IMG/VR virus record: IMGVR_UViG_3300006923_000027
Location: 1-56,225 of that record
DNA: 56,225 bases
Origin: a virus
Taxonomy: Duplodnaviria > Caudoviricetes
Direction: 5' to 3' (one strand)
Below, one piece after another: positions 1 to 15,807 of the stretch; the stretch's first letter is position 1, and each line of letters opens with the position of its first letter. The notes under the pieces were generated by a model. The model did not search any database. It was not told where the DNA came from and saw only the letters and a program-made list of their open reading frames with translations. Made by a program: the position numbers and the translations under genes.

Positions 1-1
1 G

Positions 2-187
2 GTAGAGTTAAAAGTGACAGAGCATTATGCTATATCAACAATAAAGAAAGAATACACTAAAACAGAAACACGGACAACCTCTCATAACTGGTTTAAGATA
101 CCATTGAATATAGATATGGATATAGAAGAACAAGTTTTAAAACTATTTCCTACAATGATCAACTTTAAGTGGAGAGAGATAGAATAA
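2..187 (+). CDS. hypothetical protein, 5'-truncated (payload of a cassette starting upstream of the window)
   Basis: Open frame VELKVTEHY...FKWREIE* followed by hairpin GCCTTGAC-AA-GTCAAGGC and the first palindrome. Confidence 0.7.
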   Translation, partial: VELKVTEHYAISTIKKEYTKTETRTTSHNWFKIPLNIDMDIEEQVLKLFPTMINFKWREIE

Positions 188-273
188 TATTTGAGAAGCC
201 CAAAAGCCTTGACAAGTCAAGGCCTTGCTTTGCACCGTTACCCCCGTAGGGGGTAATCTTTTGTTCAATGTAA

Positions 274-301
274 TTGAAATTAAATTTAGATGTGTTATAA
301 T
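274..301 (+). promoter_or_regulatory. sigma70 promoter, cassette 1
   Basis: TTGAAA-16bp-TATAAT with extended TG; -35 is 17 bp after the palindrome. Confidence 0.8.
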
Positions 302-332
302 ATAAGTACCTATTCAACATAAAGGAGAAAAT

Positions 333-746
333 ATGAATTTACAAGATTGTATGCCATGTGAAGAGTCTGAATTGCACCCTGCACTTAAGTCTATAGTAGA
401 GGCATTAGATGAAACAATGAAAAGCAATAAGGTGATTCCTAACAAAACTGCTGATGATTTATTCAACGAAACAAAATTTTTAATAAAAAGATTGTGGAAT
501 TACGCATTACTTATGAATAAACCAATGTGCCTAGTAACTAACCATTGTGCCTTTGGTATGGTCATTGTCTGTTCCAAAGATGAAAACGGACAAATGCTAT
601 GGAACAATCAACAGATACCAGAAAATATGTGTGGGATTGTTGCCAAGCATGTATCTACTTTTCCAGAGATGGTTACTTGTGATAGATATCATGAGCTGTG
701 GACAGTAAACTATCTTCAAAAAAGCATGGGTGGACACGAACAATAA
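333..746 (+). CDS. hypothetical early protein (cassette 1)
   Basis: ORF with AAGGAG RBS, own promoter and terminator. Confidence 0.85.
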   Translation: MNLQDCMPCEESELHPALKSIVEALDETMKSNKVIPNKTADDLFNETKFLIKRLWNYALLMNKPMCLVTNHCAFGMVIVCSKDENGQMLWNNQQIPENMCGIVAKHVSTFPEMVTCDRYHELWTVNYLQKSMGGHEQ

Positions 747-762
747 AGTGTAAACTTATTTC

Positions 763-794
763 ATAAGGGAGAGTCAAATCTCCCTTTGTGTTTT
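763..794 (+). terminator. intrinsic terminator, cassette 1
   Basis: AAGGGAGA/TCTCCCTT stem followed by T-rich tract. Confidence 0.7.
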
Positions 795-890
795 CGTTAC
801 CCCCGTAGGGGGTAACATTTCTTTCAGATTAGTTTACATACGTGTGTATGTGTGTTACAATATATATATCAATAAAACAAAGAGGTTATT

Positions 891-1259
891 ATGACAAACT
901 TAGCAACAATCAAACAACAATTGGAAAATGAAATAAAAAGACTAGAGGAAGAACTTGAGAATCTAAAAATAGACCAAAGCGAAAGAGGTAATAAACTTAT
1001 AGATTCTTTCAAAGAACAGAATATAGACTTTATTAAAAGTTGTTTTGGAAAAAGAGAATATGAAGTCATAGAAGATGAAATTGAATTTGATTATAATTTT
1101 GACACTGAGTGTGTTATAATATCTGCAAGTTTAACATTTGTTGATTTAACCCTTAATAACAATGATAAATATAAAGTTGAGATAAAGTCTATAACTACAG
1201 AATTTAATGAGTTTAGCCAACAAATATATATTTATATATCTGTCTCTTGGAGAGGATAA
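891..1259 (+). CDS. hypothetical early protein with N-terminal coiled coil (cassette 2)
   Basis: GAGGT RBS; TTTACA/TACAAT promoter upstream. Confidence 0.85.
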   Translation: MTNLATIKQQLENEIKRLEEELENLKIDQSERGNKLIDSFKEQNIDFIKSCFGKREYEVIEDEIEFDYNFDTECVIISASLTFVDLTLNNNDKYKVEIKSITTEFNEFSQQIYIYISVSWRG

Positions 1260-1388
1260 AGCGAGGAGGTGTATGATCGTGCATCTTCCACGTTACCCCC
1301 TACGGGGGTAATGTTTTGTTCAATATAATTGAAAGATTTAATTAGACGTGTTATAATATAAGTACCTGTTCAATATAAAGGAGTAAGC

Positions 1389-1877
1389 ATGAAAAAAGAA
1401 AAAGCGATACAAGGTAAAAGAGCGTATGAAAGCTCTATAGCTTTCATGAGTAATCAGACAGATTATTATATAGAGACATGGAACGGTTGTGTAAAAATTA
1501 CTAACATGTCATTAAAAGACGAGCCCGTAGAGGGAGGCTATGGTTATGACATGAACATTGTAAATTATGATAAAAGTAACATACATTATCAGTTTAATTT
1601 CTTTACTTACTTTGGAAATTGGCAATTACAATCAGTTACAAAATATGAGGATAATAATGTTATTCTTTCAATGAAGTTTGAAGATACTGTTTATCTTTAC
1701 AATAATTATTCTATGAGTACTATAATGAATTTTCTTCATAGTGTGCCCGTATTCACTAAATACATCACTTTGAAAGACGGGATAGTGCATGAGCATACAA
1801 GACCATACGGGAAGTTTATAGAGGAAGTCTCAGAACGGGATACAGAAGAATTATTGAAATATATTGTTATAGAGTAA
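1389..1877 (+). CDS. hypothetical early protein (cassette 3)
   Basis: AAGGAG RBS; promoter/leader very similar to cassette 1. Confidence 0.85.
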   Translation: MKKEKAIQGKRAYESSIAFMSNQTDYYIETWNGCVKITNMSLKDEPVEGGYGYDMNIVNYDKSNIHYQFNFFTYFGNWQLQSVTKYEDNNVILSMKFEDTVYLYNNYSMSTIMNFLHSVPVFTKYITLKDGIVHEHTRPYGKFIEEVSERDTEELLKYIVIE

Positions 1878-2018
1878 AATAAAAACAAATAGTTACATGC
1901 GTATTCGCATGTGACTTCATCCTTATTACCCCCTACGGGGGTAACTTTCTGCCCCTTTCCCTTGCACGATTGAACAATGCGTGTTATAATATATTATCAT
2001 TTCAACATAGGATTTAAC

Positions 2019-2345
2019 ATGAGTATTAAGCATTTTACAGATTATCTTTTTCATAACGGTTCTCACTGGAATAGGATTGACCTTGGTAACGGTTTGCAAC
2101 TATCAATTCAAGGCGGCATGCTGAACTATTGCCGACCTAGACAACATGGATTGAGAGCGAATCAATATACCGAGTGGGAAATCGCTGTTTTTAAAGAGGG
2201 GGAGATGATAAACCCTCAATGTAAAAGTTATGAATTTTCAGAGGAAGATAATGTTTTCTGTTATGTTCCTACATTAAAGGTTCAAGAATTATTTGAGGAA
2301 ACAAATAGACTTACAAAAGAAGAAGTAGAAAGATTAGGAAGTTAA
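2019..2345 (+). CDS. phage hypothetical protein (LSIQ...YCxPR...YVP type) (cassette 4)
   Basis: Start moved to the ATG after the promoter and AGGA RBS; motif pattern recalled from phage hypothetical proteins. Confidence 0.8.
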   Translation: MSIKHFTDYLFHNGSHWNRIDLGNGLQLSIQGGMLNYCRPRQHGLRANQYTEWEIAVFKEGEMINPQCKSYEFSEEDNVFCYVPTLKVQELFEETNRLTKEEVERLGS

Positions 2346-2487
2346 AAGATAAAAATTAGATACTAAGACCATGCATGAGTATGGTCTTTTTCTTCATTAC
2401 CCCCGTAGGGGGTAACCTTTCTGTCTTTTTTATGCATGTGTGAAAATACATGCTATAATATATTATCACTACAAAAAAGGAGAATTT

Positions 2488-2751
2488 ATGCATTACAGAA
2501 TCTATTATGAAAACAGGGATTATTTATTCAGAGTGTCGGATAGACAGTGGTATTCTATAGACGGTACAAAGGTTTATGACAGAGAGTTGAGGGATACTTT
2601 GACAAGTTTGTGTTCTCAAAGATGTAACGTCCCTATGGAGAGTTTTCAGCCTGTTAAAGTTGTAATTCAAGATATAAAGAAAGAGTCAAAAAGAAAACCA
2701 AGAAAAGCAAAGGTCAGTAAAAATAAAAAATGGAAATTGAATCTTTTTTAA
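2488..2751 (+). CDS. small basic protein, WK(L/I)N C-terminal family (cassette 5)
   Basis: AAGGAG RBS before ATG 2488; ends KKWKLNLF. Confidence 0.8.
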   Translation: MHYRIYYENRDYLFRVSDRQWYSIDGTKVYDRELRDTLTSLCSQRCNVPMESFQPVKVVIQDIKKESKRKPRKAKVSKNKKWKLNLF

Positions 2752-2918
2752 TGACTTAATATGTAGCCTTTACTATTTAATTGTTTGGGCTTTAATTCAT
2801 TACCCCCTACGGGGGTAACACTTAACTCAAAAGACTTGTAAGATTACTATAGTCATGTTATAATATATATGTATTCAACAACGGATACACATTCACTACT
2901 AAAAAAAAGGAAAAAAAA

Positions 2919-3434
2919 ATGTCAAATTTCATTTTTTCATTCAATCAAAAAAACAAACGTACACGATCTGCAAAAGAGATATTTGAGGAGACTCTTTTTC
3001 TTAAAAAGAAAAATGGCGTTCTATGTATCGAATTTAACCTTGTGGAAGATAGAAAAGGATATGGGGCACAATTCATTCCTACTGGCGAATTAGAAGAAGT
3101 AGCACAAGTCCTTGTTGACGCTAGGGACAATGGTATCACAAGCGAAACACAACAACTTTCAACGGCTCAGATTCTCAAAAAATCTTTAATAGAAACTGAG
3201 AAAGGAGAGATTAGATTCAAAACTGAAGATACAAAAGGAAAAAAGCCTACTGTATGTTCTGATAAAGAAGATTTTAATGAGTTTGTAGATACGTTCATGT
3301 CTATACTTCCTGCTATGCAAACTGAAATTGCAAGAGTCCAAAAGGAAATGGGCTTAATTGTAGAAGAAGAAGTAGAAGAAGTAAATAATGATGAATACTA
3401 CAATGAAGAAGATTATATTGAAGAAGAAGAATAA
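2919..3434 (+). CDS. triplicated early protein copy 1, with acidic tail (cassette 6)
   Basis: Highly similar to 4011-4457 and 5369-5842. Confidence 0.9.
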   Translation: MSNFIFSFNQKNKRTRSAKEIFEETLFLKKKNGVLCIEFNLVEDRKGYGAQFIPTGELEEVAQVLVDARDNGITSETQQLSTAQILKKSLIETEKGEIRFKTEDTKGKKPTVCSDKEDFNEFVDTFMSILPAMQTEIARVQKEMGLIVEEEVEEVNNDEYYNEEDYIEEEE

Positions 3435-3607
3435 CATTTGTAGTTAAATATACAAGAGGACATGCGTTTGTGTGTCCTCGCTTTTATCTGGTTACCCCCT
3501 ACGGGGGTAATGTTATGTGCTATAAATTTGTTTGATCTGATTATTTGTGTTATAATATAATATAGCATAAAGTTATATTCAAAAATCACTACCAAAGGGA
3601 GAATCCT

Positions 3608-3853
3608 ATGAAAAAGAAAGTCGATTTAAGTCAATTTGCAGTTGACTTGAAAAGCAAAAGCAACGTTGTTTACATGCTTGAGAATGTAATACAAAGAAGT
3701 AAATTAGATTTGGTTGTATCTGACAAGGAAACACTTGTTTCTTTAATTAGATATGTTATATTGAGAGGTAAATACACTATAAATATAGATGAACTTGTAA
3801 AAGATGATGAGTATATAGTAAGGCTCATAGAGGAACACGCCAAAGTTGAATAA
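3608..3853 (+). CDS. hypothetical early protein (cassette 7)
   Basis: GGGAG RBS, promoter and terminator. Confidence 0.8.
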   Translation: MKKKVDLSQFAVDLKSKSNVVYMLENVIQRSKLDLVVSDKETLVSLIRYVILRGKYTINIDELVKDDEYIVRLIEEHAKVE

Positions 3854-4010
3854 AAAAAAGAGCAGTTATTATTTGTATAACTGTTTCTTTATTACCCCCT
3901 ACGGGGGTAACACTTAACCCAAAGTAGTTGAAATATTTATACATACGTGTTATAATATATATGTATTCAACAACGGATACAAATTCACTACTAAAAAAAA
4001 GAGGTCAAAA

Positions 4011-4457
4011 ATGAGTTTTTCATTTTCATTCAATCAAAAAAATAAACGTACACGTTCTGCAAAAGAAATTTTTTCAGATACATTACAGCTAGTTGAGCAT
4101 GATGGCACATTATGTATATCATTTAATCTTGTAGAGGATCGAAAAGGCTACGGTGCACAATTTGTTCCAGTGTCTGAACTACAAGAGTTTGCTGATGTTC
4201 TTTGTATGGCACGTGACAACGGTATTGCTAACGAAACTGAACAGTTATCCACAGCACAAATTCTTAAAAAATCTTTAATCGAAACTGAAAAGGGAGAAAT
4301 AAGATTTAAGACAGAAGATACAAAGGGAAAAAAACCCACTGTTTGTTCTGACAAAGAAGATTTTGATGTATTTGTAACTACGTTTATGAGCGTGCTTCCA
4401 GCCATGAAGTCTGAAATACAACGTGTTCAAAATGAACTAGGTAAGATGAATGAGTAA
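4011..4457 (+). CDS. triplicated early protein copy 2 (cassette 8)
   Basis: Paralog of 2919 and 5369; GAGGT RBS. Confidence 0.9.
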   Translation: MSFSFSFNQKNKRTRSAKEIFSDTLQLVEHDGTLCISFNLVEDRKGYGAQFVPVSELQEFADVLCMARDNGIANETEQLSTAQILKKSLIETEKGEIRFKTEDTKGKKPTVCSDKEDFDVFVTTFMSVLPAMKSEIQRVQNELGKMNE

Positions 4458-4608
4458 ATATTAAATATTTAAAAACCAAGAGGACATGCATTTGCGTGTC
4501 CTCACTTCTCTCATTACCCCCTACGGGGGTAATCACTTGTGTAACAACCTTGCAAAAACAAGCAAGTAGTGTTATAATATATTATCACTTCAACAAAAGG
4601 AGATTTTT

Positions 4609-4755
4609 ATGAGTGAATACTATAAACATAAGACAATCATTATATGTGAAAAAACTGGTCGAAAAAGAATACAGTTTAAAAAGGAAGAACGCAAAATAGT
4701 GTTGGCAGAACCCAAGAAGCCAAAAACTGTAAAGGTATGGAAAATAAATTTTTAA
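4609..4755 (+). CDS. 48-aa basic protein, WK(L/I)N C-terminal family (cassette 9; not in ORF track)
   Basis: AAGGAG RBS; MSEYYKHKTII...KPKTVKVWKINF*. Confidence 0.8.
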   Translation: MSEYYKHKTIIICEKTGRKRIQFKKEERKIVLAEPKKPKTVKVWKINF

Positions 4756-4919
4756 TCGGCTCTCAAAAGAGTTGCTATTATGGCAACTCTACACATTACC
4801 CCCGTAGGGGGTAACTCCTAACCCAATTCACTTGACGTGAGTATAGTAAGAGGTTATAATATAGTATATCCAATCAAGGATATATGAAATATTATATAAT
4901 ATCAAACAAAGGGAAAAAT

Positions 4920-5162
4920 ATGCAAAATATAGATGTAGTAAGACGCTGGACACGTGGTGTGACTGGTAAAAATTCAAATATGCGTACAGACGGGAGTGCG
5001 TTGTATTCTTATGATTTACAAATAGGATATACTAAACGAAACGGTGACAAAATAGTTTATAACTATACTGCAAGTGGAGAATTCAAAACTCGAACCACAT
5101 CAAAGCATGTTGTTACTGCACGTGTTCTAGCCGATAGGCAAGAGGACGTTCCTAGCACATAG
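4920..5162 (+). CDS. phage hypothetical protein (LYSY...TTSKH type) (cassette 10)
   Basis: ORF downstream of a TTGACG/TATAAT promoter; start could be 4884. Confidence 0.8.
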   Translation: MQNIDVVRRWTRGVTGKNSNMRTDGSALYSYDLQIGYTKRNGDKIVYNYTASGEFKTRTTSKHVVTARVLADRQEDVPST

Positions 5163-5368
5163 TATTTGGAATTTTTATCTTTGGAGGTATTCTTCTTTAT
5201 AAGTTGAATACCTCACTTTTTTATTTTCCATTTACCCCCTACGGGGGTAACGTATGTATCAAAAAGATTTACTTTTTAACACACACGTGTTGACACGACA
5301 CTTCAATCATGTTATAATATATATATCCAATGAAGGATATTCACTACTATAAAAAAGAGGTAAAAAAA

Positions 5369-5842
5369 ATGAGTAAAAATTTTGTATTTTCATTCAATAA
5401 GAAAAATAAAAGAACACGTTCAGCAACGGAGATTTTTCAAGATACGTTGCAATTAGTTATGCATAACGATATTTTGTCTATAGAATTCAATCTTGTTGAG
5501 GACAGAAAGGGTTATGGAGCCCAATTCGTTCCCGTTGACGAATTAGAACAAGTTTCTGCAATCTTAGTCAATGCACGTGATAACGGTATAGCGAATGAAA
5601 CCGAACAGTTATCAACGGCTCAGATTCTCAAAAAATCTTTAATAGAAACTGAGAAAGGAGAGATCAGATTTAAAACAGAGGACACAAAAGGTAAGAAGCC
5701 AACTGTATGTAAGGATCAAGGCGACTTCAATGAATTTGTTGATACGTTCATGAGTGTGCTTCCTGCTATGCAATCAGAGATACAACGTGTTCAAGGTGAA
5801 CTAAGTAAGATGAAAGCTACAGATAGTGATACAGAAGAATAA
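5369..5842 (+). CDS. triplicated early protein copy 3 (cassette 11)
   Basis: Paralog of 2919/4011; GAGGT RBS before ATG 5369. Confidence 0.9.
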   Translation: MSKNFVFSFNKKNKRTRSATEIFQDTLQLVMHNDILSIEFNLVEDRKGYGAQFVPVDELEQVSAILVNARDNGIANETEQLSTAQILKKSLIETEKGEIRFKTEDTKGKKPTVCKDQGDFNEFVDTFMSVLPAMQSEIQRVQGELSKMKATDSDTEE

Positions 5843-6001
5843 ATATTTGTTATTCTGTTATATAAGAGAACATGTATATGCGTGTTCTCTTTTTTTTCTT
5901 ATTGAATTACCCCCGTAGGGGGTAACAACCTACTCGCTTCACTTGACATAACAAGTGCAGCATGTTATATTATATCACTACTCTAAAAAAAGGAGACCAT
6001 C

Positions 6002-6328
6002 GTGTCATTATTACAAGTTAAATACCGTTCAAAAGGTGAAAGATCAATTTATTATTATAATCAAGAAGAAAGATGTTTTCTAACTGAAGATATGAAACAA
6101 ATAAGTGATAACAAACTTCATCATAGGTTAGTATATCGTATGATGTTCGAAACAGAGCATTGTATAAATAGAGTTAAAATATTTAACCTTACCGAAGAAG
6201 AAGAAACAAAATTAAGACTAATATACGGAGAAGAAGAAAAACCTAAAAAAGCTATTAGAACTCCCAAAGTAGATAATACAGTTAACTCAAATAAGTGGAA
6301 ATTAAATATAGACTTTACAAATCATTGA
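6002..6328 (+). CDS. small protein, WK(L/I)N C-terminal family (cassette 12)
   Basis: AAGGAG RBS, GTG start; ends NKWKLNIDFTNH. Confidence 0.8.
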   Translation: MSLLQVKYRSKGERSIYYYNQEERCFLTEDMKQISDNKLHHRLVYRMMFETEHCINRVKIFNLTEEEETKLRLIYGEEEKPKKAIRTPKVDNTVNSNKWKLNIDFTNH

Positions 6329-6408
6329 TTTAACAAAACAACTCTTTAGTTTTTCTAAAGAGTTTACTCTATTACCCCCTACGGGGGTAACGCATGCTCA
6401 CACTTGAG

Positions 6409-6437
6409 TTGACATACGATTGAAACCGTGTTATATT
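6409..6437 (+). promoter_or_regulatory. sigma70 promoter driving ncRNA 1
   Basis: TTGACA-17bp-TATATT, extended TG. Confidence 0.85.
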
Positions 6438-6443
6438 ATTATC

Positions 6444-6760
6444 GTTAGTGCGTTGTACCAACGTGCGATAAGAAGTTTTTTAATTTTTCTTCCTTAGAGT
6501 TCTTGAATAATAAATTAAAATTAAACTAATTTTTATCTTCGATAAAGTCTTTTAATTTCTTATTTAATAACTCTCAGTGATAAAAATTAAATTAAAATAT
6601 GCTTCTTGTGCCATCTATTTTAAATAAAGAGGCCAGCGTAAGCTGGCAAGTTAAACTTTCCAGAAAGAAAACATCTCTGCATTTAAGATAAAACTTAATA
6701 TATCTCTTAGTTTTTTAATAAACATCCTTTTGGTTAGAGATATATTAAGTTTTATCTTGA
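6444..6760 (+). ncRNA. putative structured ncRNA 1 (unassigned family)
   Basis: No ORF or RBS; 5' hairpin 6448-6466, ~140-nt rod 6468-6609, GCCAGC-GTAA-GCTGGC hairpin, 23-bp 3' stem 6685-6758. Confidence 0.75.
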
Positions 6761-6796
6761 TTACCCCCGTAGGGGGTAACGCATAACCAAAGCAAC

Positions 6797-6825
6797 TTGA
6801 CTCTAGTCTACTAACATGTTATATT
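6797..6825 (+). promoter_or_regulatory. sigma70 promoter driving ncRNA 2
   Basis: TTGACT-17bp-TATATT. Confidence 0.85.
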
Positions 6826-6830
6826 ATAAT

Positions 6831-7185
6831 TGTAAGGATCGACACCTAGATAGGGTTTATATATCAATAACTAGATAGTGTCTACGGACACACACAAAAA
6901 CAAATACAGTTGATCCTTACTCTGTGTTTTAGTGCGTTGTTACAACGTGCGTGTACACGTTCACAAAATCTTTCTTTAATTGCTAAAGATTTGTAAACAA
7001 AACAATAAATTTTCTTGTCACAATTAAAGAAAGATTTAGTTTAACCAGTCCCGCATCCCAGCTTCTTTTAAAATTAAAAAGCAGCTTCCCTTCCAGGAAT
7101 CAAATTAAACAAGATCAAAACTTAATATACTATCAGTTTTTAAATAAACAACCTTTTAGGGATAGTATATTAAGTTTTGCTTTTA
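6831..7185 (+). ncRNA. putative structured ncRNA 2 (same family, extra 5' domain)
   Basis: Extra stem 6832-6920; hairpin 6932-6950; rod 6966-7037; 19-bp 3' stem 7116-7179. Confidence 0.75.
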
Positions 7186-7221
7186 TTACCCCCTACGGGG
7201 GTAAAGCGATACACACACGTA

Positions 7222-7250
7222 TTGACACAACATATCATATATGTTATATT
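7222..7250 (+). promoter_or_regulatory. sigma70 promoter driving ncRNA 3
   Basis: TTGACA-17bp-TATATT. Confidence 0.85.
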
Positions 7251-7256
7251 ATTATT

Positions 7257-7534
7257 GTTGGTGGTATGTTGTTCCGACATGCTAGTATTATCTTTTAAAT
7301 TAACGACCGTTAATGCAAATGTGATTTAAAGATCATTCTGATTTTTAAACTAAAATAAACACATTGCGCAATCACTTTCGTTAATTTAAAGAACCCAGAA
7401 GGAATCACAGCTTTAAATTAAAATGTAGCTGCGGCCTGCCTGGAATAAAACCAAACAAAACACACTTAATATATATTTCAGTTTTTAAATAAACAATCTG
7501 CCAACAGAGAAGTATATATTAAGTGTGTTTTGCA
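7257..7534 (+). ncRNA. putative structured ncRNA 3 (same family)
   Basis: Hairpin 7264-7282; rod 7294-7390; CAGCT/AGCTG hairpin; 20-bp 3' stem 7456-7532. Confidence 0.75.
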
Positions 7535-7743
7535 TTACCCCCGTAGGGGGTATTACTTCATTCTTGTAGTTATATCATTTTATTTATGTAGTTTGTTCAG
7601 ATAAAATAATAAAGTAAAGAATGAAGTGATGTATATTAAAAATCAATATAGGCGATCATATATGCGTTTATATTCCTGCACAAATTTTTCAGGTGGGTTA
7701 TGTACGCACACAAGAAAAAGGTGGTAAATATAAGCCATATTGC

Positions 7744-7772
7744 TTGACAAGGGATAGAATATAGGTTATTAT
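7744..7772 (+). promoter_or_regulatory. sigma70 promoter without upstream palindrome
   Basis: TTGACA-17bp-TATTAT. Confidence 0.7.
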
Positions 7773-7778
7773 TTATGT

Positions 7779-7950
7779 ATAGCGAATTGAACGTCACTTT
7801 TCAAGATTGTAGAAATACTATAAGAAAGAATTTAAGTATTCCTATTAAGAGATGTGAGACACACAAAGTGATGATCAATCAATGATAAAAACAATACAGA
7901 ATATAGAGGGTTTAATTTATTCTGTATAGCCTTTCACACTTTGGAAAAAC
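7779..7950 (+). ncRNA. possible structured ncRNA or leader
   Basis: Nested stems (GTCACTTT/AAAGTGAT, AATACT/AGTATT) and ATACAGAATA/TATTCTGTAT hairpin directly after the promoter. Confidence 0.45.
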
Positions 7951-8657
7951 ATTTATGAATAAAAATAAACCATCATACAGATCAGATCAATTAGGTATAC
8001 ATGTGCGTATCTGTTTAATGTTATTGCAAGGTTTATTATTAAGTTCATTATTGTTTTATGGGGGTATTAGTTTTTATAAAAGTGTAAGAAAAGAAACGAT
8101 TAAATTGATGTATATAAATTATATAAAGGGGAAGTATCAAACGATTATTAAAATAAATGATATGTTGAGTCTGTTATAGTATAGAGATTCCATATCAGTT
8201 TTTTTTGGGCATACAAAGAAATAGACATTTTTCCTTTTTTAGAAGTAGTGATTTAAAAAAATAAAACAAAAATAATGTTTATAACTCTTTGTATGCCCTT
8301 TTTTATTATAAGCAGAAATAAATAAAGAGTCAGAATAAATAAAAAAATAACAAATAAATCTTGAACGCTCTTTATAAAAAATCTAAAGAAATTAAAACGG
8401 GATATAAAAATATATATATAATATACATGAGAGGCATGAATAATAAATAAAGTATATCATGTATATATATAATACATCATAAAAAATACAAGAAAAAAAC
8501 TAAGAAAGTATTTGCCTATTTATAATAGGGGGGATAAAATAAATAAATAGGCTATTAATGCAGAGTAATGGAAAGACAAATAAATTCACATACGTGCGTG
8601 TGTGAATAAGAAATAAGTTTATATACATACACATGTGTGTACACATAAGGGTCAAAT

Positions 8658-9056
8658 ATGAATGAAATGTTATTTTTAATTGTTGAGGGAATAGATTTAA
8701 ACCAAGAGTATTATGGTTTTGATGAACCTGATGATATAGAACATAAAGTAATGAAGCATTATGAATCATCAGAAGAATTTTCAATTGAAATAGACAAAGA
8801 AGAAATTGGTGCTTATTATTTAAAGAGAAGAAATATAAAACCTTTGCATATAGTTTTTGATAGGGGTTGGATTATATTTAAAATAAGTCAAGAGGATTTA
8901 TCAAAGGATATGTCAAACAAAGACTATATATCAGATTTTGTATTATCTTTAATTATATTTTTAAAAGCAGAGAAAGAGAGACAAGAGGAAGAAAGAATAA
9001 GACTTGCTGAGGAAAGCAAGAAGAAAAAAGAGATCCCTAACTTTGAGTGGTTATAA
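8658..9056 (+). CDS. hypothetical protein
   Basis: ORF track; AAGGG RBS. Confidence 0.75.
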   Translation: MNEMLFLIVEGIDLNQEYYGFDEPDDIEHKVMKHYESSEEFSIEIDKEEIGAYYLKRRNIKPLHIVFDRGWIIFKISQEDLSKDMSNKDYISDFVLSLIIFLKAEKERQEEERIRLAEESKKKKEIPNFEWL

Positions 9057-10890: not shown

Positions 10891-11370
10891 ATGCTAAGAA
10901 TTAATGACAAAGAATTAAAAGAATTTATTAAAGACTTTCAAGATAGTCTGCATTATCATTGGTCTGAAAACGTTCTTAATCAATCTTACGGCTATGAAAT
11001 AATTCAAGATATACCACCTCATTCTATGATAAATAACTGGAATAAAGAAGTATACTTTCTATTTAATGTAGATGATATATACCAACCTAACATAGGTTAC
11101 TATATTAAAAAACAAATTCTTATGGACGGCTTTGAAGAATGGCTGGATCAATCTGATAAATCAACTGACGACCTAGTTAACTTATTATATATAATTAAAC
11201 ATACCGAACAAAAAATAGACGAAGAATGGGGTGACGATATCTTTGAAAGAATTCTGGTTAAATATATAGACTGGATTAGAAACCAAATGAACAACGGTGC
11301 AATCTTTGCTATACCCCTAACTATTAAAATAGAATGGCACGATAAATATTATAAGAATAAGAACAAATAA
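10891..11370 (+). CDS. hypothetical protein
   Basis: ORF track. Confidence 0.75.
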   Translation: MLRINDKELKEFIKDFQDSLHYHWSENVLNQSYGYEIIQDIPPHSMINNWNKEVYFLFNVDDIYQPNIGYYIKKQILMDGFEEWLDQSDKSTDDLVNLLYIIKHTEQKIDEEWGDDIFERILVKYIDWIRNQMNNGAIFAIPLTIKIEWHDKYYKNKNK

Positions 11371-11474
11371 CTTTTTTTACACCAAAACACTTTTTTTACA
11401 CCAAAACACTTTTTTTCAGAGACCAAAGTGACTTTTTCTCAAAAACCGAAGTGGTTTTTTCTCAGAATTCGAAC
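11371..11474. repeat. tandem ~19-22 bp repeats (CTTTTTTTACACCAAAACA x2 plus 3 degenerate copies)
   Basis: Direct reading of the sequence. Confidence 0.85.
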
Positions 11475-11717
11475 AGTATATAGAACATAAAAGATTCTTG
11501 AACTTTTTTACACCAAACCAAAAATAGTGCGTAGGGTTGTATTTCCCACAGGTCAATTTTTAAACCTTTTTATATAAGAAAAAACGGAAACTCAATTTTT
11601 TTTACATGATTTTTTTTTGAGGTTTTGCATATAAGATTTTATGTAGTTGGTGTATGGCTTAAAAGCCAAGTGTGATTTTTTTTACATGAAATTTTTTATA
11701 GTTTTTATATATAAAAA

Positions 11718-11786
11718 AGTGGGTTCAAAGTGGTTCAGAGGGTTCGCTTGGGTTCGAGTGGGTTCAGAGTGGACAAAGTAGGTTTA
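11718..11786. repeat. ~10-bp period GGTTC repeats (iteron-like)
   Basis: gtgggttcaa agtggttcag agggttcgct tgggttcgag tgggttcaga gtggacaaag taggtttaag. Confidence 0.75.
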
Positions 11787-11938
11787 AGGAACTAAAGAAA
11801 CAAAAAGAAATATTAAGGGATTAAAGTAATCGTAAATATAATAAAAAGGAGTTGAACATTATGTCAGGATAAAATTAAAATAATTTATGGAAAGAAGTAA
11901 GTTCGAGTAAGTTCATTAAACCAAAGAGGGTAATAGTT

Positions 11939-12178
11939 ATGGAAGACAAAAAAGAAAAAAATAAACAAGTTTGTTCGTTATGTGGAAAGGAAGTAGTTCC
12001 GAGGGTTGATAATGAAAATCATTGTTCAGTAGAGATCACACATCATTATGGTTCGCCTAAAGATGGTGACATTTTATTATATGATGTTTGTATTGAGTGT
12101 GTTGAAGATATATTTAAAAATGCGATTCCCTTGAGAAAAAGATCAATTTGGGAAAGAATAATAAAGGATGTGAAGTGA
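11939..12178 (+). CDS. small zinc-ribbon protein (CxxC...YGSxxDG...CxxC)
   Basis: CSLC and CIEC pairs. Confidence 0.75.
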   Translation: MEDKKEKNKQVCSLCGKEVVPRVDNENHCSVEITHHYGSPKDGDILLYDVCIECVEDIFKNAIPLRKRSIWERIIKDVK

Positions 12179-12558: not shown

Positions 12559-12732
12559 ATGGAAATAACGGAAGAATTAAAAGATGGAATTATCAGCTAT
12601 GCTATATATGAGTTACTTCATAGAATGAGGGAGGCTGATTATGAGAATTTAATAGACAGTCATCCTGAGTTAAAAGAGTTATCAGATGAAGAAATAGTTG
12701 ATATTATATTAAGTATAGCAGAAGAATTTTAA
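12559..12732 (+). CDS. 57-aa acidic hypothetical protein (not in ORF track)
   Basis: AAGGAG RBS; MEITEELKDG...SIAEEF*. Confidence 0.75.
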   Translation: MEITEELKDGIISYAIYELLHRMREADYENLIDSHPELKELSDEEIVDIILSIAEEF

Positions 12733-14579: not shown

Positions 14580-14930
14580 ATGAAAATTAAAAAGATAAAT
14601 GGTAAAGATGTAAATAGAGATTTAAGTTTTAATAAATATGATTTATTAAAGTTTTGTATTCGTAACACATTAAATGATTTCTATGATAGTCCTCTCTTTA
14701 TACATGATGTATTTTGGTCATTGTTTGACACAGATGTAGAAGATATTACAAGTAAAGACGGATATCATGAAACAGAAGTAGAGTTTGTTAAAAATAAAAG
14801 AGTTTCTATTGGTAATGTTGACTCTACTTATCATGAGGTTATGTTAATGGCTGAAAAGTTATATGAGGAATTAGAGAACAATGAGGAAAGATTTAAAAGC
14901 AAAATGATTTTATTTGATGATAATGAGTAA
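14580..14930 (+). CDS. hypothetical protein
   Basis: Start moved to the ATG after AAGGA. Confidence 0.7.
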   Translation: MKIKKINGKDVNRDLSFNKYDLLKFCIRNTLNDFYDSPLFIHDVFWSLFDTDVEDITSKDGYHETEVEFVKNKRVSIGNVDSTYHEVMLMAEKLYEELENNEERFKSKMILFDDNE

Positions 14931-14943
14931 AAAGGAGTCAAAT

Positions 14944-15807
14944 ATGAAAACCAAAGAAGAAATTAAAGAAATAAAAGAAAGATGCACTAAGATTAAATTT
15001 AAGTGTAAAAAAAATAAAAATGGTCTTTTTTCAATGCACCTTAGAAATAGACATAAAAAAATTTCTCTGATTTTAAGTTTCTATGATACAAAAGAAGAGG
15101 CAGAAGCTGTATTTGATAAATTTTATATGGTATTTTATTTATACGGAGAGAAAAAAACTTACAAAGAATTAAAAAAATATATTAAAGAGGAGAATAGAAG
15201 AAGATTTTCAAAAATAAAATGTAGATATAAAGAGCTAAAAGAATTGCCAAATTCTTTTATATGTGAAAATGGAGATCTGTACCATACAAATTATTTTATA
15301 TGTGAAAATGGAGATCTGTACCATATTAAAAGACAAATGCTTTTAAACAAGTCTGCTCAATCTATCTCCAAACCTGGATACAAAACTTTTTCTTTACGTG
15401 AAAATAATAAATGTATGACAAAAAATACCCATAGATTTATTGCAAAATATTTTTTAGATGATTTTAATGAAAACTTAATGGTAGATCATATAGATAGAAA
15501 CAAACTAAACAATCATGTTTCTAATCTTAGAATGGTTACAAAAAGAGAGAATTTTTTAAATTCAGACTTTTATGATAATTCAAAAGGTTATCGCTTAATA
15601 AATGGCAAATATCAAGTTCGTATTACTATTTTTCAACAAAGTTTTACTTTAGGTACATATAAAACTAAGAGCGAAGCAATTGATGCATATAAAGCAGCAA
15701 AAGAAAAGACAAAAGATATTTCAGAAGAAAACATTGCAGAATTTTCAAAGTATGCAAAAAAAATCCAACTCAAGGCTGAAAATAAAAGAAAAGGCAATAT
15801 AAGTTAA
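14944..15807 (+). CDS. HNH homing-endonuclease-like protein with AP2-like domain(s)
   Basis: HRFIA...VDHIDRNKLNNHVSNLRMVT HNH motif; C-terminal KYQVRI...LGTYKTKSEA AP2-like segment. Confidence 0.9.
   Translation: MKTKEEIKEIKERCTKIKFKCKKNKNGLFSMHLRNRHKKISLILSFYDTKEEAEAVFDKFYMVFYLYGEKKTYKELKKYIKEENRRRFSKIKCRYKELKELPNSFICENGDLYHTNYFICENGDLYHIKRQMLLNKSAQSISKPGYKTFSLRENNKCMTKNTHRFIAKYFLDDFNENLMVDHIDRNKLNNHVSNLRMVTKRENFLNSDFYDNSKGYRLINGKYQVRITIFQQSFTLGTYKTKSEAIDAYKAAKEKTKDISEENIAEFSKYAKKIQLKAENKRKGNIS

Follow-up and report, generated by a model that had tools for sequence, protein, structure and literature searches.

The viral record IMGVR_UViG_3300006923_000027 of IMG/VR (56,225 bp; the whole record was analysed and is called the window here) carries an array of small cassettes separated by near-identical hairpins. 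The last three of these, cassettes 13–15, hold related structured units, which we call A, B and C, where the other cassettes hold open reading frames (ORFs). We see about an even chance that cassettes 13–15 are paralogous genes for trans-acting, probably protein-binding non-coding RNAs (ncRNAs), carried in early cassettes that resemble the promoter-early stem-loop (PeSL) modules of T4-type phages. That the units are expressed as structured RNAs is probable. That they act in trans by binding a protein, be it as decoy, sponge or scaffold, is a more tentative proposal, to which we give somewhat less than an even chance. Judged from their sequences, the units would represent a new RNA family within a known type of phage regulatory cassette.

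The array is defined by the hairpin ACCCCC-GTA/TAC-GGGGGT (TTACCCCC-NNN-GGGGGTAA). All 16 copies in the window lie between positions 240 and 7551; from 100 shuffles, none would be expected. The 16 near-identical hairpins enclose 15 cassettes, 12 of which consist of a promoter, a Shine-Dalgarno (SD) sequence and an ORFan gene. The products of these 12 coding cassettes have no PHROG match and no Pfam match above the cutoff. All 16 junctions follow the same order: a variable terminator-like hairpin, a few bases, the boundary hairpin (A/G)TTACCCCC-NNN-GGGGGTAA, a spacer of 15–45 nt and a −35 box. After the −35 box come 16–18 nt (mostly 17), the sequence TGTTATA(A/T)TAT, a short leader and, in the coding cassettes, a strong SD and the ORF. 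Cassettes 13–15 (6374–6763, 6763–7188 and 7188–7537) make up an ORF-less stretch at 6391–7534. They are bounded by hairpins 13 (TTACCCCC-TAC-GGGGGTAA, 6372–6390), 14 (TTACCCCC-GTA-GGGGGTAA, 6761–6779), 15 (7186–7204) and 16, the last of the array (7535–7552).

A first-pass annotation, made from the DNA letters without database searches, had noted that these three cassettes possess near-consensus promoters and lack both a ribosome-binding site and an ORF. Both observations hold. Between 6391 and 7556, the + strand contains no SD-preceded ORF of at least 8 amino acids (aa) and the − strand contains a single one, of 10 aa; in each of the 12 other cassettes an SD and an ORF are present. The longest ORFs in the units measure 25–50 aa and none has an SD. 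The sole 30-aa ORF that begins with ATG (6599–6691) loses both the ATG and the frame in a second strain of the phage, known from a metagenome contig (L020).

The promoters of the units lie on the + strand and each has a TG upstream of its −10 box. Unit A has TTGACA-17-TATATT (6409–6437; 11 of 12 consensus positions; predicted start at about 6444), unit B TTGACT-17-TATATT (6797–6825; 10 of 12; start at about 6832) and unit C again TTGACA-17-TATATT (7222–7250; 11 of 12; start at about 7257). Throughout the array, the promoters that follow the hairpins match the sigma-70 consensus at 10–12 of 12 positions, which is a match to a consensus only. Promoter-like sites as such are not more frequent in positions 1–9000 than in shuffled sequence (49 versus 48.2). 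The best-scoring promoters share one offset downstream of the boundary hairpins, and in this units A–C are like the 12 coding cassettes. The last four cassettes, namely that of a 108-aa ORF and units A–C (promoters at 5943–5971, 6409–6437, 6797–6825 and 7222–7250), also share the −10 variant TGTTATATTAT. Of the 11 earlier cassettes, cassette 2 has TACAAT and the other ten have TATAAT, usually in the form TGTTATAATAT. The common −10 variant of the last four is consistent with local tandem duplication.

The three units are built from the same five parts in the same order, much as the first-pass annotation had described with a 3' stem of 19–23 bp: an 8-bp hairpin at the 5' end, an AT-rich rod that varies in length and sequence, a mid hairpin, a linker CCWGRAA and a 3' stem of 23–27 bp. 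Averaged over alignment columns, the three copies are 63% identical. The core of the 3' stem, ACTTAATATA/TATATTAAGT (in RNA ACUUAAUAUA/UAUAUUAAGU), and the loop sequence AGTTTTTWAATAAACA are invariant across the units. Outside the units, the window contains none of these shared motifs except for the 10-mer ACTTAATATA, which recurs singly at 12705 and 36069.

Unit A is predicted to yield an RNA of about 317 nt (6444–6760, + strand, as are all parts of the units). Its 5' hairpin (6448–6466) has 8 bp including two G-U pairs. The AT-rich rod beyond it (6468–6609) is long and bulged, and its 42-nt arms are complementary at 83%. Next come the mid hairpin GCCAGC-GTAA-GCTGGC (6632–6647), the linker CCAGAAA (6660–6666) and the 3' stem-loop (6685–6758), which combines a perfect 23-bp stem around the ACTTAATATA core with a 28-nt loop containing AGTTTTTTAATAAACA. 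The stem, whose 3' arm is rich in U, occupies the position at which the protein cassettes have their terminator.

The predicted RNA of unit B is longer, at about 356 nt (6832–7187), and begins with an extra 5' domain of 89 nt (6832–6920), which is closed by a 12-bp stem from the predicted +1 and is absent from units A and C. Only then follows the family 5' hairpin (6932–6950), with the stem of unit A and a TTA loop. The rod (6963–7040) has 20-nt arms at 95% complementarity; the mid hairpin is AGCTTCTTTT...AAAAAGCAGCT (7060–7086) and the linker CCAGGAA (7093–7099). The 3' stem-loop (7108–7187) pairs over 27 nt at 89% and carries the same core and loop motifs. Unit C, the shortest with about 278 nt (7257–7534), has the 5' hairpin GTATGTTG-TTC-CGACATGC (7264–7282), a rod with 23-nt arms at 83% complementarity (7293–7391), the mid hairpin CAGCT...AGCTG (7408–7431), the linker CCTGGAA (7439–7445) and a 3' stem-loop that pairs over 24 nt at 96% (7456–7532).

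All three 3' stem-loops thus lie where the terminator would be, and each 3' arm leads into a U-rich tract. A scan for intrinsic terminators does not call them; the stems are AU-rich and the loops measure 26–29 nt. The terminator-like hairpin of cassette 5 (2755–2801) and its equivalent in the second strain contain ACTTAATAT(G/A), a sequence similar to the invariant core of the unit stems. The array's set of terminators and the terminal stems of the units may be related.

Folding sets the units apart from shuffled sequence. From the predicted starts, units A, B and C reach minimum free energies of −98.1, −108.1 and −97.9 kcal/mol, corresponding to z-scores of −9.06, −10.27 and −9.87, and none of 100, 100 and 200 shuffles, respectively, folded as well. 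In a sliding scan with 150-nt windows, for which z-scores were taken from mononucleotide shuffles, 12 of the 16 windows starting at 6376–7501 had z ≤ −3.4, and coding parts scored near zero. Among the coding cassettes structure is confined to the junctions; in the ORF-less units it runs through most of 6376–7575.

The first-pass annotation had further argued from G-T, rather than A-C, mismatches on the + strand that selection acts on RNA. This is true for part of the structure. The 5' hairpins of A, B and C are worth −6.9, −5.4 and −6.2 kcal/mol on the + strand and only −3.3, −3.3 and 0.0 kcal/mol on the − strand. The + strand is likewise favoured by all three 3' stems, by the rod of unit A and by the extra domain of unit B (−27.6 versus −20.9 kcal/mol). 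The argument does not extend to the rods of B and C or to the mid domains, to which we return below.

Base changes between the copies point in the same direction. As had been suggested, the 5' hairpin shows compensatory change: in unit C all 8 pairs are kept despite four substitutions relative to A and B, comprising one double change and two wobble changes (C-G to U-A, G-U to A-U and U-A to U-G). The proposed covariation of the arms of the 3' stem is also borne out. The 3' domain was aligned, by fitting to the model, over the three copies, the only independent ones, and two strain copies. Of 130 cells in this alignment 97.7% pair, and in 6 of 26 pairs both sides have changed. Among 500 shuffles none reached this degree of pairing and one reached this number of double changes; registers slid out of place pair at 35–53%. 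A covariance model of the 3' domain (R1), run with filters off, finds exactly three + strand copies in the window, in units B (111.7 bits), A (100.4 bits) and C (91.0 bits). On the − strand the same loci score 30.7–46.5 bits, and the next match has 20.6 bits (E 0.13). The model search thereby recovers the three copies of the window, while the viral-contig loci that were scored with it yield no further homolog.

The second strain provides a further view of what is maintained. The contig L020 belongs to the same lineage and covers units A and B together with the initial 100 nt of unit C. Between the two strains, unit B is 98.0% identical and unit A 87.9%; two neighbouring ORFs, of 157/170 aa and 108 aa, are 83.4% and 85.9% identical, and the segments with hairpin and promoter 94–96%. 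Unit B is thus more conserved than both adjacent ORFs. Its changes are five unpaired positions, one gap and one pair broken at a stem end. The changes in unit A comprise 17 unpaired positions, one GC-to-AU compensation, three wobble changes that keep pairs, 10 changes that break them and one gap. The breaks cluster in the outer rod (6468–6476 with 6601–6609), where the second strain has replaced sequence and indels, a change that also removes the ATG and the frame of the 30-aa ORF; the outer 9 bp of the rod are gone, and the inner part is kept with the GC-to-AU compensation. The 5' hairpins and 3' stems of units A and B are retained, the 5' hairpin of unit A without any change, and A6690 becomes G to give a G-U pair. 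In the mid hairpin of unit A the stem persists with 5 bp and the loop has changed. Altogether, four wobble-type transitions (6505, 6601, 6690 and 7343) keep pairs on the + strand. Variant contigs that run across the units are also present in two sequencing runs (X4 and X5).

The boundary hairpins behave differently from the units. Their 3-nt loop is GTA at seven sites and TAC at nine, the two being reverse complements of each other. At four of the six sites common to both strains the loop is flipped, for example at hairpin 13, which has GTA in L020, and at hairpin 14. This argues that the boundary hairpins undergo frequent flip-flop at the DNA level, and the sequences suggest that the flips may arise by cruciform- or hairpin-mediated inversion or by recombination. 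The 28-nt loop of the 3' stem, unlike the boundary loops, has one orientation in five of five copies. Orientation therefore seems to matter for the large loop, which probably reflects a role at the RNA level.

The array is also dynamic at a larger scale. Two cassettes encode paralogous proteins of 171 aa and 157 aa (2919–3434 and 5369–5842) that are 78% identical. At about 1525–1995 on its minus strand, the second strain encodes a chimera, with an N-terminal part like the first paralog and a C-terminal part like the second; the five cassettes that separate the paralogs in the window, roughly 2.4 kb, are missing there. The chimera and the missing DNA point to a deletion by recombination between paralogous cassettes. 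In run X4, joints and loose ends fall at boundary hairpins and different DNA is joined there, with joined sides of only 21–22 nt.

Searches beyond the window returned little. None of the 4227 models of Rfam 15 matched the window at gathering score, in agreement with the first-pass view that the RNAs cannot be assigned to a family. With E up to 10, the region 5800–8000 gave 23 matches, all far below gathering; those within the units were mostly to generic hairpin-type (miRNA precursor) models and fell on both strands. A distant blastn search of 6330–7560 against 50,697 phage records found no match. In viral contigs, the 5' arm plus loop motif had no match; the loop plus 3' arm had one, a chance occurrence inside an ORF. 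The helix core with any loop was found at 25 viral-contig loci, which we also consider chance matches (at most 27.5 bits under R1, compared with 91–112.6 for true copies). Prokaryote genome contigs gave no match to the loop plus 3' arm, and the motif scan of metagenome contigs returned L020 alone. The boundary hairpin occurs in viral contigs as 11 singletons and in no arrays. Likewise, a 337-aa protein, a sigma-like protein and the 157-aa cassette protein of the phage had no relatives in viral contigs. CsrA-type GGA motifs and Hfq-type ARN runs, checked by eye only, were set aside, as unit A has no GGA. The first-pass proposal of a phage ncRNA family therefore stands as far as homologous, promoter-driven, ORF-less and structured units are concerned, and it stops at the boundary of this phage lineage, beyond which the searches gave no homolog.

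The closest precedent for the cassettes is the PeSL. According to the accessible part of the report on them, PeSL cassettes of T4-type phages pair a sigma-70-like early promoter with a stem-loop containing poly-G/poly-C tracts (Arbiol et al. 2010, PMC2839356). Such modules recur many times in hyperplastic regions of small ORFan genes, where they mediate shuffling; insertions, deletions and replacements at the modules distinguish the strains (PMC2839356). The array described here shares the early-type promoter, the G/C-tract stem-loop, the setting among ORFans and the strain differences at hairpins. It differs in that its hairpin is a near-invariant 19-nt sequence, which always lies upstream of the −35 box and is preceded by a separate terminator. 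PeSL phages are of the T4 type; no T4-type hallmark is seen among the 36 proteins scanned from the window, which covers about 30% of the genome. Moreover, in three cassettes a predicted structured RNA takes the place of the ORF, an arrangement that the part of the PeSL report available to us does not describe (PMC2839356). The literature that we searched yielded no account of phages with tandem ncRNA paralogs in cassettes.

For the RNAs themselves, the nearest likeness is found in the virulent Staphylococcus Kayvirus vB_SauM-515A1. Its lncRNA1 and lncRNA2 are, in the accessible part of the source, ORF-less regions of 525–570 bp that are very highly transcribed and of unknown function (PMC7698491). 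One of the two regions has a typical early promoter and both adjoin tRNA genes (PMC7698491). Compared by description only, they resemble our units in being ORF-less, several hundred bases long and located in a large AT-rich phage. The same part of that source describes them neither as tandem paralogs nor as cassettes, and expression is shown there but predicted here. These regions are a precedent for abundant ORF-less early transcripts.

The phi29 pRNA and the bacterial 6S RNA are protein-binding structured RNAs of 120–200 nt; pRNA is made from an early promoter near the genome end and 6S forms a long rod. Neither Rfam model matched at gathering score or with E up to 10. The 6S RNA has a large central bubble, which mimics an open promoter, whereas the rods predicted here have small internal loops only. 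The first-pass idea of a 6S-like decoy for RNA polymerase is therefore disfavoured.

The window itself derives from a linear record with a completeness rating of about 30%, in which end repeats were not found. About 29% of its bases are G or C. The + strand has more A than T and more G than C, and it carries almost all of the long ORFs. Nine of 36 scanned proteins have a PHROG match and two of nine large proteins a Pfam match. No T4-type hallmark or marker is seen among the 36 proteins, in the roughly 30% of the genome that is visible, and a scan of the window detects neither tRNA nor tmRNA. In tblastn against cultured phages, identities reach about 27–37% at best, to jumbo-phage proteins and phage sigma factors. 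Among DNA sequencing runs, 24 of marine or seawater origin, belonging to 20 studies, contain parts of 5300–8300. The source is a novel, large, AT-rich and uncultivated marine phage.

Three features of the surrounding DNA deserve mention. Past the last boundary hairpin lie 1.1 kb (7556–8657) of weakly structured, almost ORF-free DNA with 24–25% GC, which contain an 11/12 promoter (7744–7772) and a 74-aa hydrophobic ORF with no clear SD (7955–8179). GC content and GC skew shift sharply there, the skew from about 0.1 to 0.35–0.49, and the segment may be a module boundary or a terminal-repeat boundary. Further downstream, 11370–11940 is ORF-free and contains perfect tandem repeats (19 nt × 2.5 at 100%, 23 nt × 2.5 and 10 nt × 5.5); these iteron-like repeats are a candidate replication origin or protein-binding array. 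An ORF resembling HNH homing endonucleases (14914–15807; Pfam HNH_3, E 1e-10; phrog_99) is found within an otherwise ORFan gene block.

How might the units work? In the mechanism that we propose, the host RNA polymerase with a sigma-70-type factor would read each unit on the + strand from its own TG-extended early promoter. Each RNA would start with a hairpin at or within 8 nt of its predicted 5' end and would finish with the stem of 23–27 bp and its U-rich 3' arm. Stems that close both ends are the usual design of long-lived RNAs, given 5'-end-dependent and 3' exonucleolytic decay. The 5' hairpin and the terminal 3' stem would close the RNA at both ends, which suits a long-lived RNA. The recognition surface would comprise the 5' hairpin, the CCWGRAA linker, the ACUUAAUAUA/UAUAUUAAGU helix core and the loop AGUUUUUWAAUAAACA. 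A trans-acting, protein-binding role is favoured because these constant elements look like such a surface while the rods vary. Early in infection, the RNAs would then bind a host or phage protein in trans as decoy, sponge or scaffold, and the three diverged copies may add dosage or widen specificity.

A bolder version, for which we see only a slim chance, is that the units represent a new modular class of RNA, in which constant 5' and 3' handles (the hairpin, CCWGRAA, and the invariant helix core and loop) dock a protein and a hypervariable double-stranded rod sets the specificity. Such RNAs could be early decoys that weaken host immunity based on the sensing of RNA or other nucleic acids, swapped as mobile promoter-hairpin cassettes. 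If this were true, they would be duplicated and exchanged between phages exactly like the adjacent ORFan anti-host genes.

Several points weigh against trans-acting RNA genes. The rods of units B and C and all three mid domains fold equally well or better on the − strand, and in the strand test the whole of unit B reaches −95.6 kcal/mol on the + strand versus −100.6 on the − strand. Long near-perfect palindromes can also be maintained at the DNA level. In unit A, 10 of the 14 changed pairs are broken in the second strain, mostly in the outer rod, so part of the predicted structure is not conserved. The covariation rests on three paralogs and two near-identical strain copies because there is no outside homolog: motif scans of viral, genome and metagenome contigs, blastn and covariance-model scoring gave none beyond the lineage. 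No RNA run is among the sequencing runs that hold the stretch. Complements to the units within the 56-kb window extend to 14 nt at the longest, as against 13–16 nt in shuffles. Finally, the partner protein and the target are hypothetical, and the role is a predicted one.

One alternative places the function in the DNA. Here, 6391 to about 8650 would be a cis element, such as an injection stop signal (iss) like that of T5, a terminal-repeat boundary, a packaging site or a transcription-activated origin, the promoters being either incidental or a means of opening the DNA. We regard this as unlikely, although the location is suggestive, as the units end the early-gene array within 7.6 kb of the record end and the 1.1-kb, almost ORF-free, AT-rich stretch comes next. 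The − strand folding of the rods of B and C and of the mid domains also fits a DNA element, as does the behaviour of the adjacent boundary hairpins, whose loops flip between strains. In the accessible part of the source, the untranslated repeat region of T5 with its iss contains ordered DnaA boxes within inverted repeats (bioRxiv 10.1101/866236). A region of the T5 type also belongs to the long terminal repeat, where the pre-early genes end; in the linear record analysed here, what is seen of this is the place of the units at the close of the early array. The two regions are alike as non-coding stretches dense in repeats, inverted repeats and palindromes at the end of a first-expressed gene block near the genome end. 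As far as that part of the source goes, T5 has ordered DnaA boxes and no cassette grammar; our units have no DnaA box and a promoter each. DnaA boxes (TTWTNCACA) are absent from 6391–7556 and, with 11 found and 10.06 expected, not enriched in the window. Each unit instead repeats the full grammar of a coding cassette, from the hairpin and the promoter spacing to a terminal stem at the terminator position. The 5' hairpins, in a further difference from the T5 region, need G-U pairs and collapse on the − strand, and the 3' loop keeps its orientation in all five copies. GC skew does not change sign at the units, and the iteron-like perfect tandem repeats at 11370–11772 are a better origin candidate.

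If the units do act as RNA, they need not act in trans. They could be cis-acting regulatory RNAs, nascent transcripts of which modify their own polymerase and promote read-through of boundary hairpins and terminators into the genes downstream of 7556. The put RNAs of HK022 modify the polymerase that transcribes them, and putL and putR are paralogous copies. Like these, the units are paralogous, with conserved RNA elements near the start sites, and their three strong promoters are stacked in the same direction directly upstream of the long gene block after 7556. Their layout makes such a role quite improbable, however. The family 5' hairpin of unit B lies 100 nt from the start, each unit closes at the terminator position with a long stem, one arm of which is U-rich, before the next boundary hairpin, and the downstream genes have a separate promoter with an 11/12 score at 7744–7772. 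Nor does Rfam provide a link to a known antiterminator RNA. Alternatively, the variable rods or the conserved loop could pair as antisense with mRNAs of the host, or with those that the phage encodes beyond the visible 30% of its genome, given that the rods differ between copies, as specificity segments would, and that the conserved single-stranded loop and the A-rich linker are free for pairing. The rods, being paired with themselves over almost their whole length, are poorly designed for seed pairing, and the search, which covered the window, gave no complement beyond the length found in shuffles. We therefore consider antisense action very unlikely. Least probable in our view are decayed or 'empty' cassettes, that is, functionless remnants of duplicated regulatory modules that recombination would have built up in a hyperplastic region. 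The dynamic array would readily generate such remnants, with its protein cassettes at 78% identity, the roughly 2.4 kb lost between them in L020 and the different DNA joined at boundary hairpins in other strains, and the outer rod of unit A is indeed not conserved. Copies that have diverged to a mean column identity of 63% nevertheless keep the five-part architecture and compensated helices, unit B is more conserved between strains than the adjacent ORFs, and structure spans the whole units, not just their terminator-like ends.

Taken together, we favour the reading of cassettes 13–15 as genes for trans-acting RNAs, at the strength given at the outset. As a compact family with sharp limits, in which constant and variable parts are readily told apart, the units are a good object for work in vitro even though the phage is uncultivated and relatives are known only within one marine lineage. 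To our knowledge, few non-coding RNAs are known from phages, most of them unexplained. Functions for host takeover and anti-defence concentrate in the early-gene arrays at phage genome ends. The presence of RNA genes in the same mobile cassettes as ORFan proteins, duplicated and kept, suggests that RNA-based early functions belong to this arsenal.

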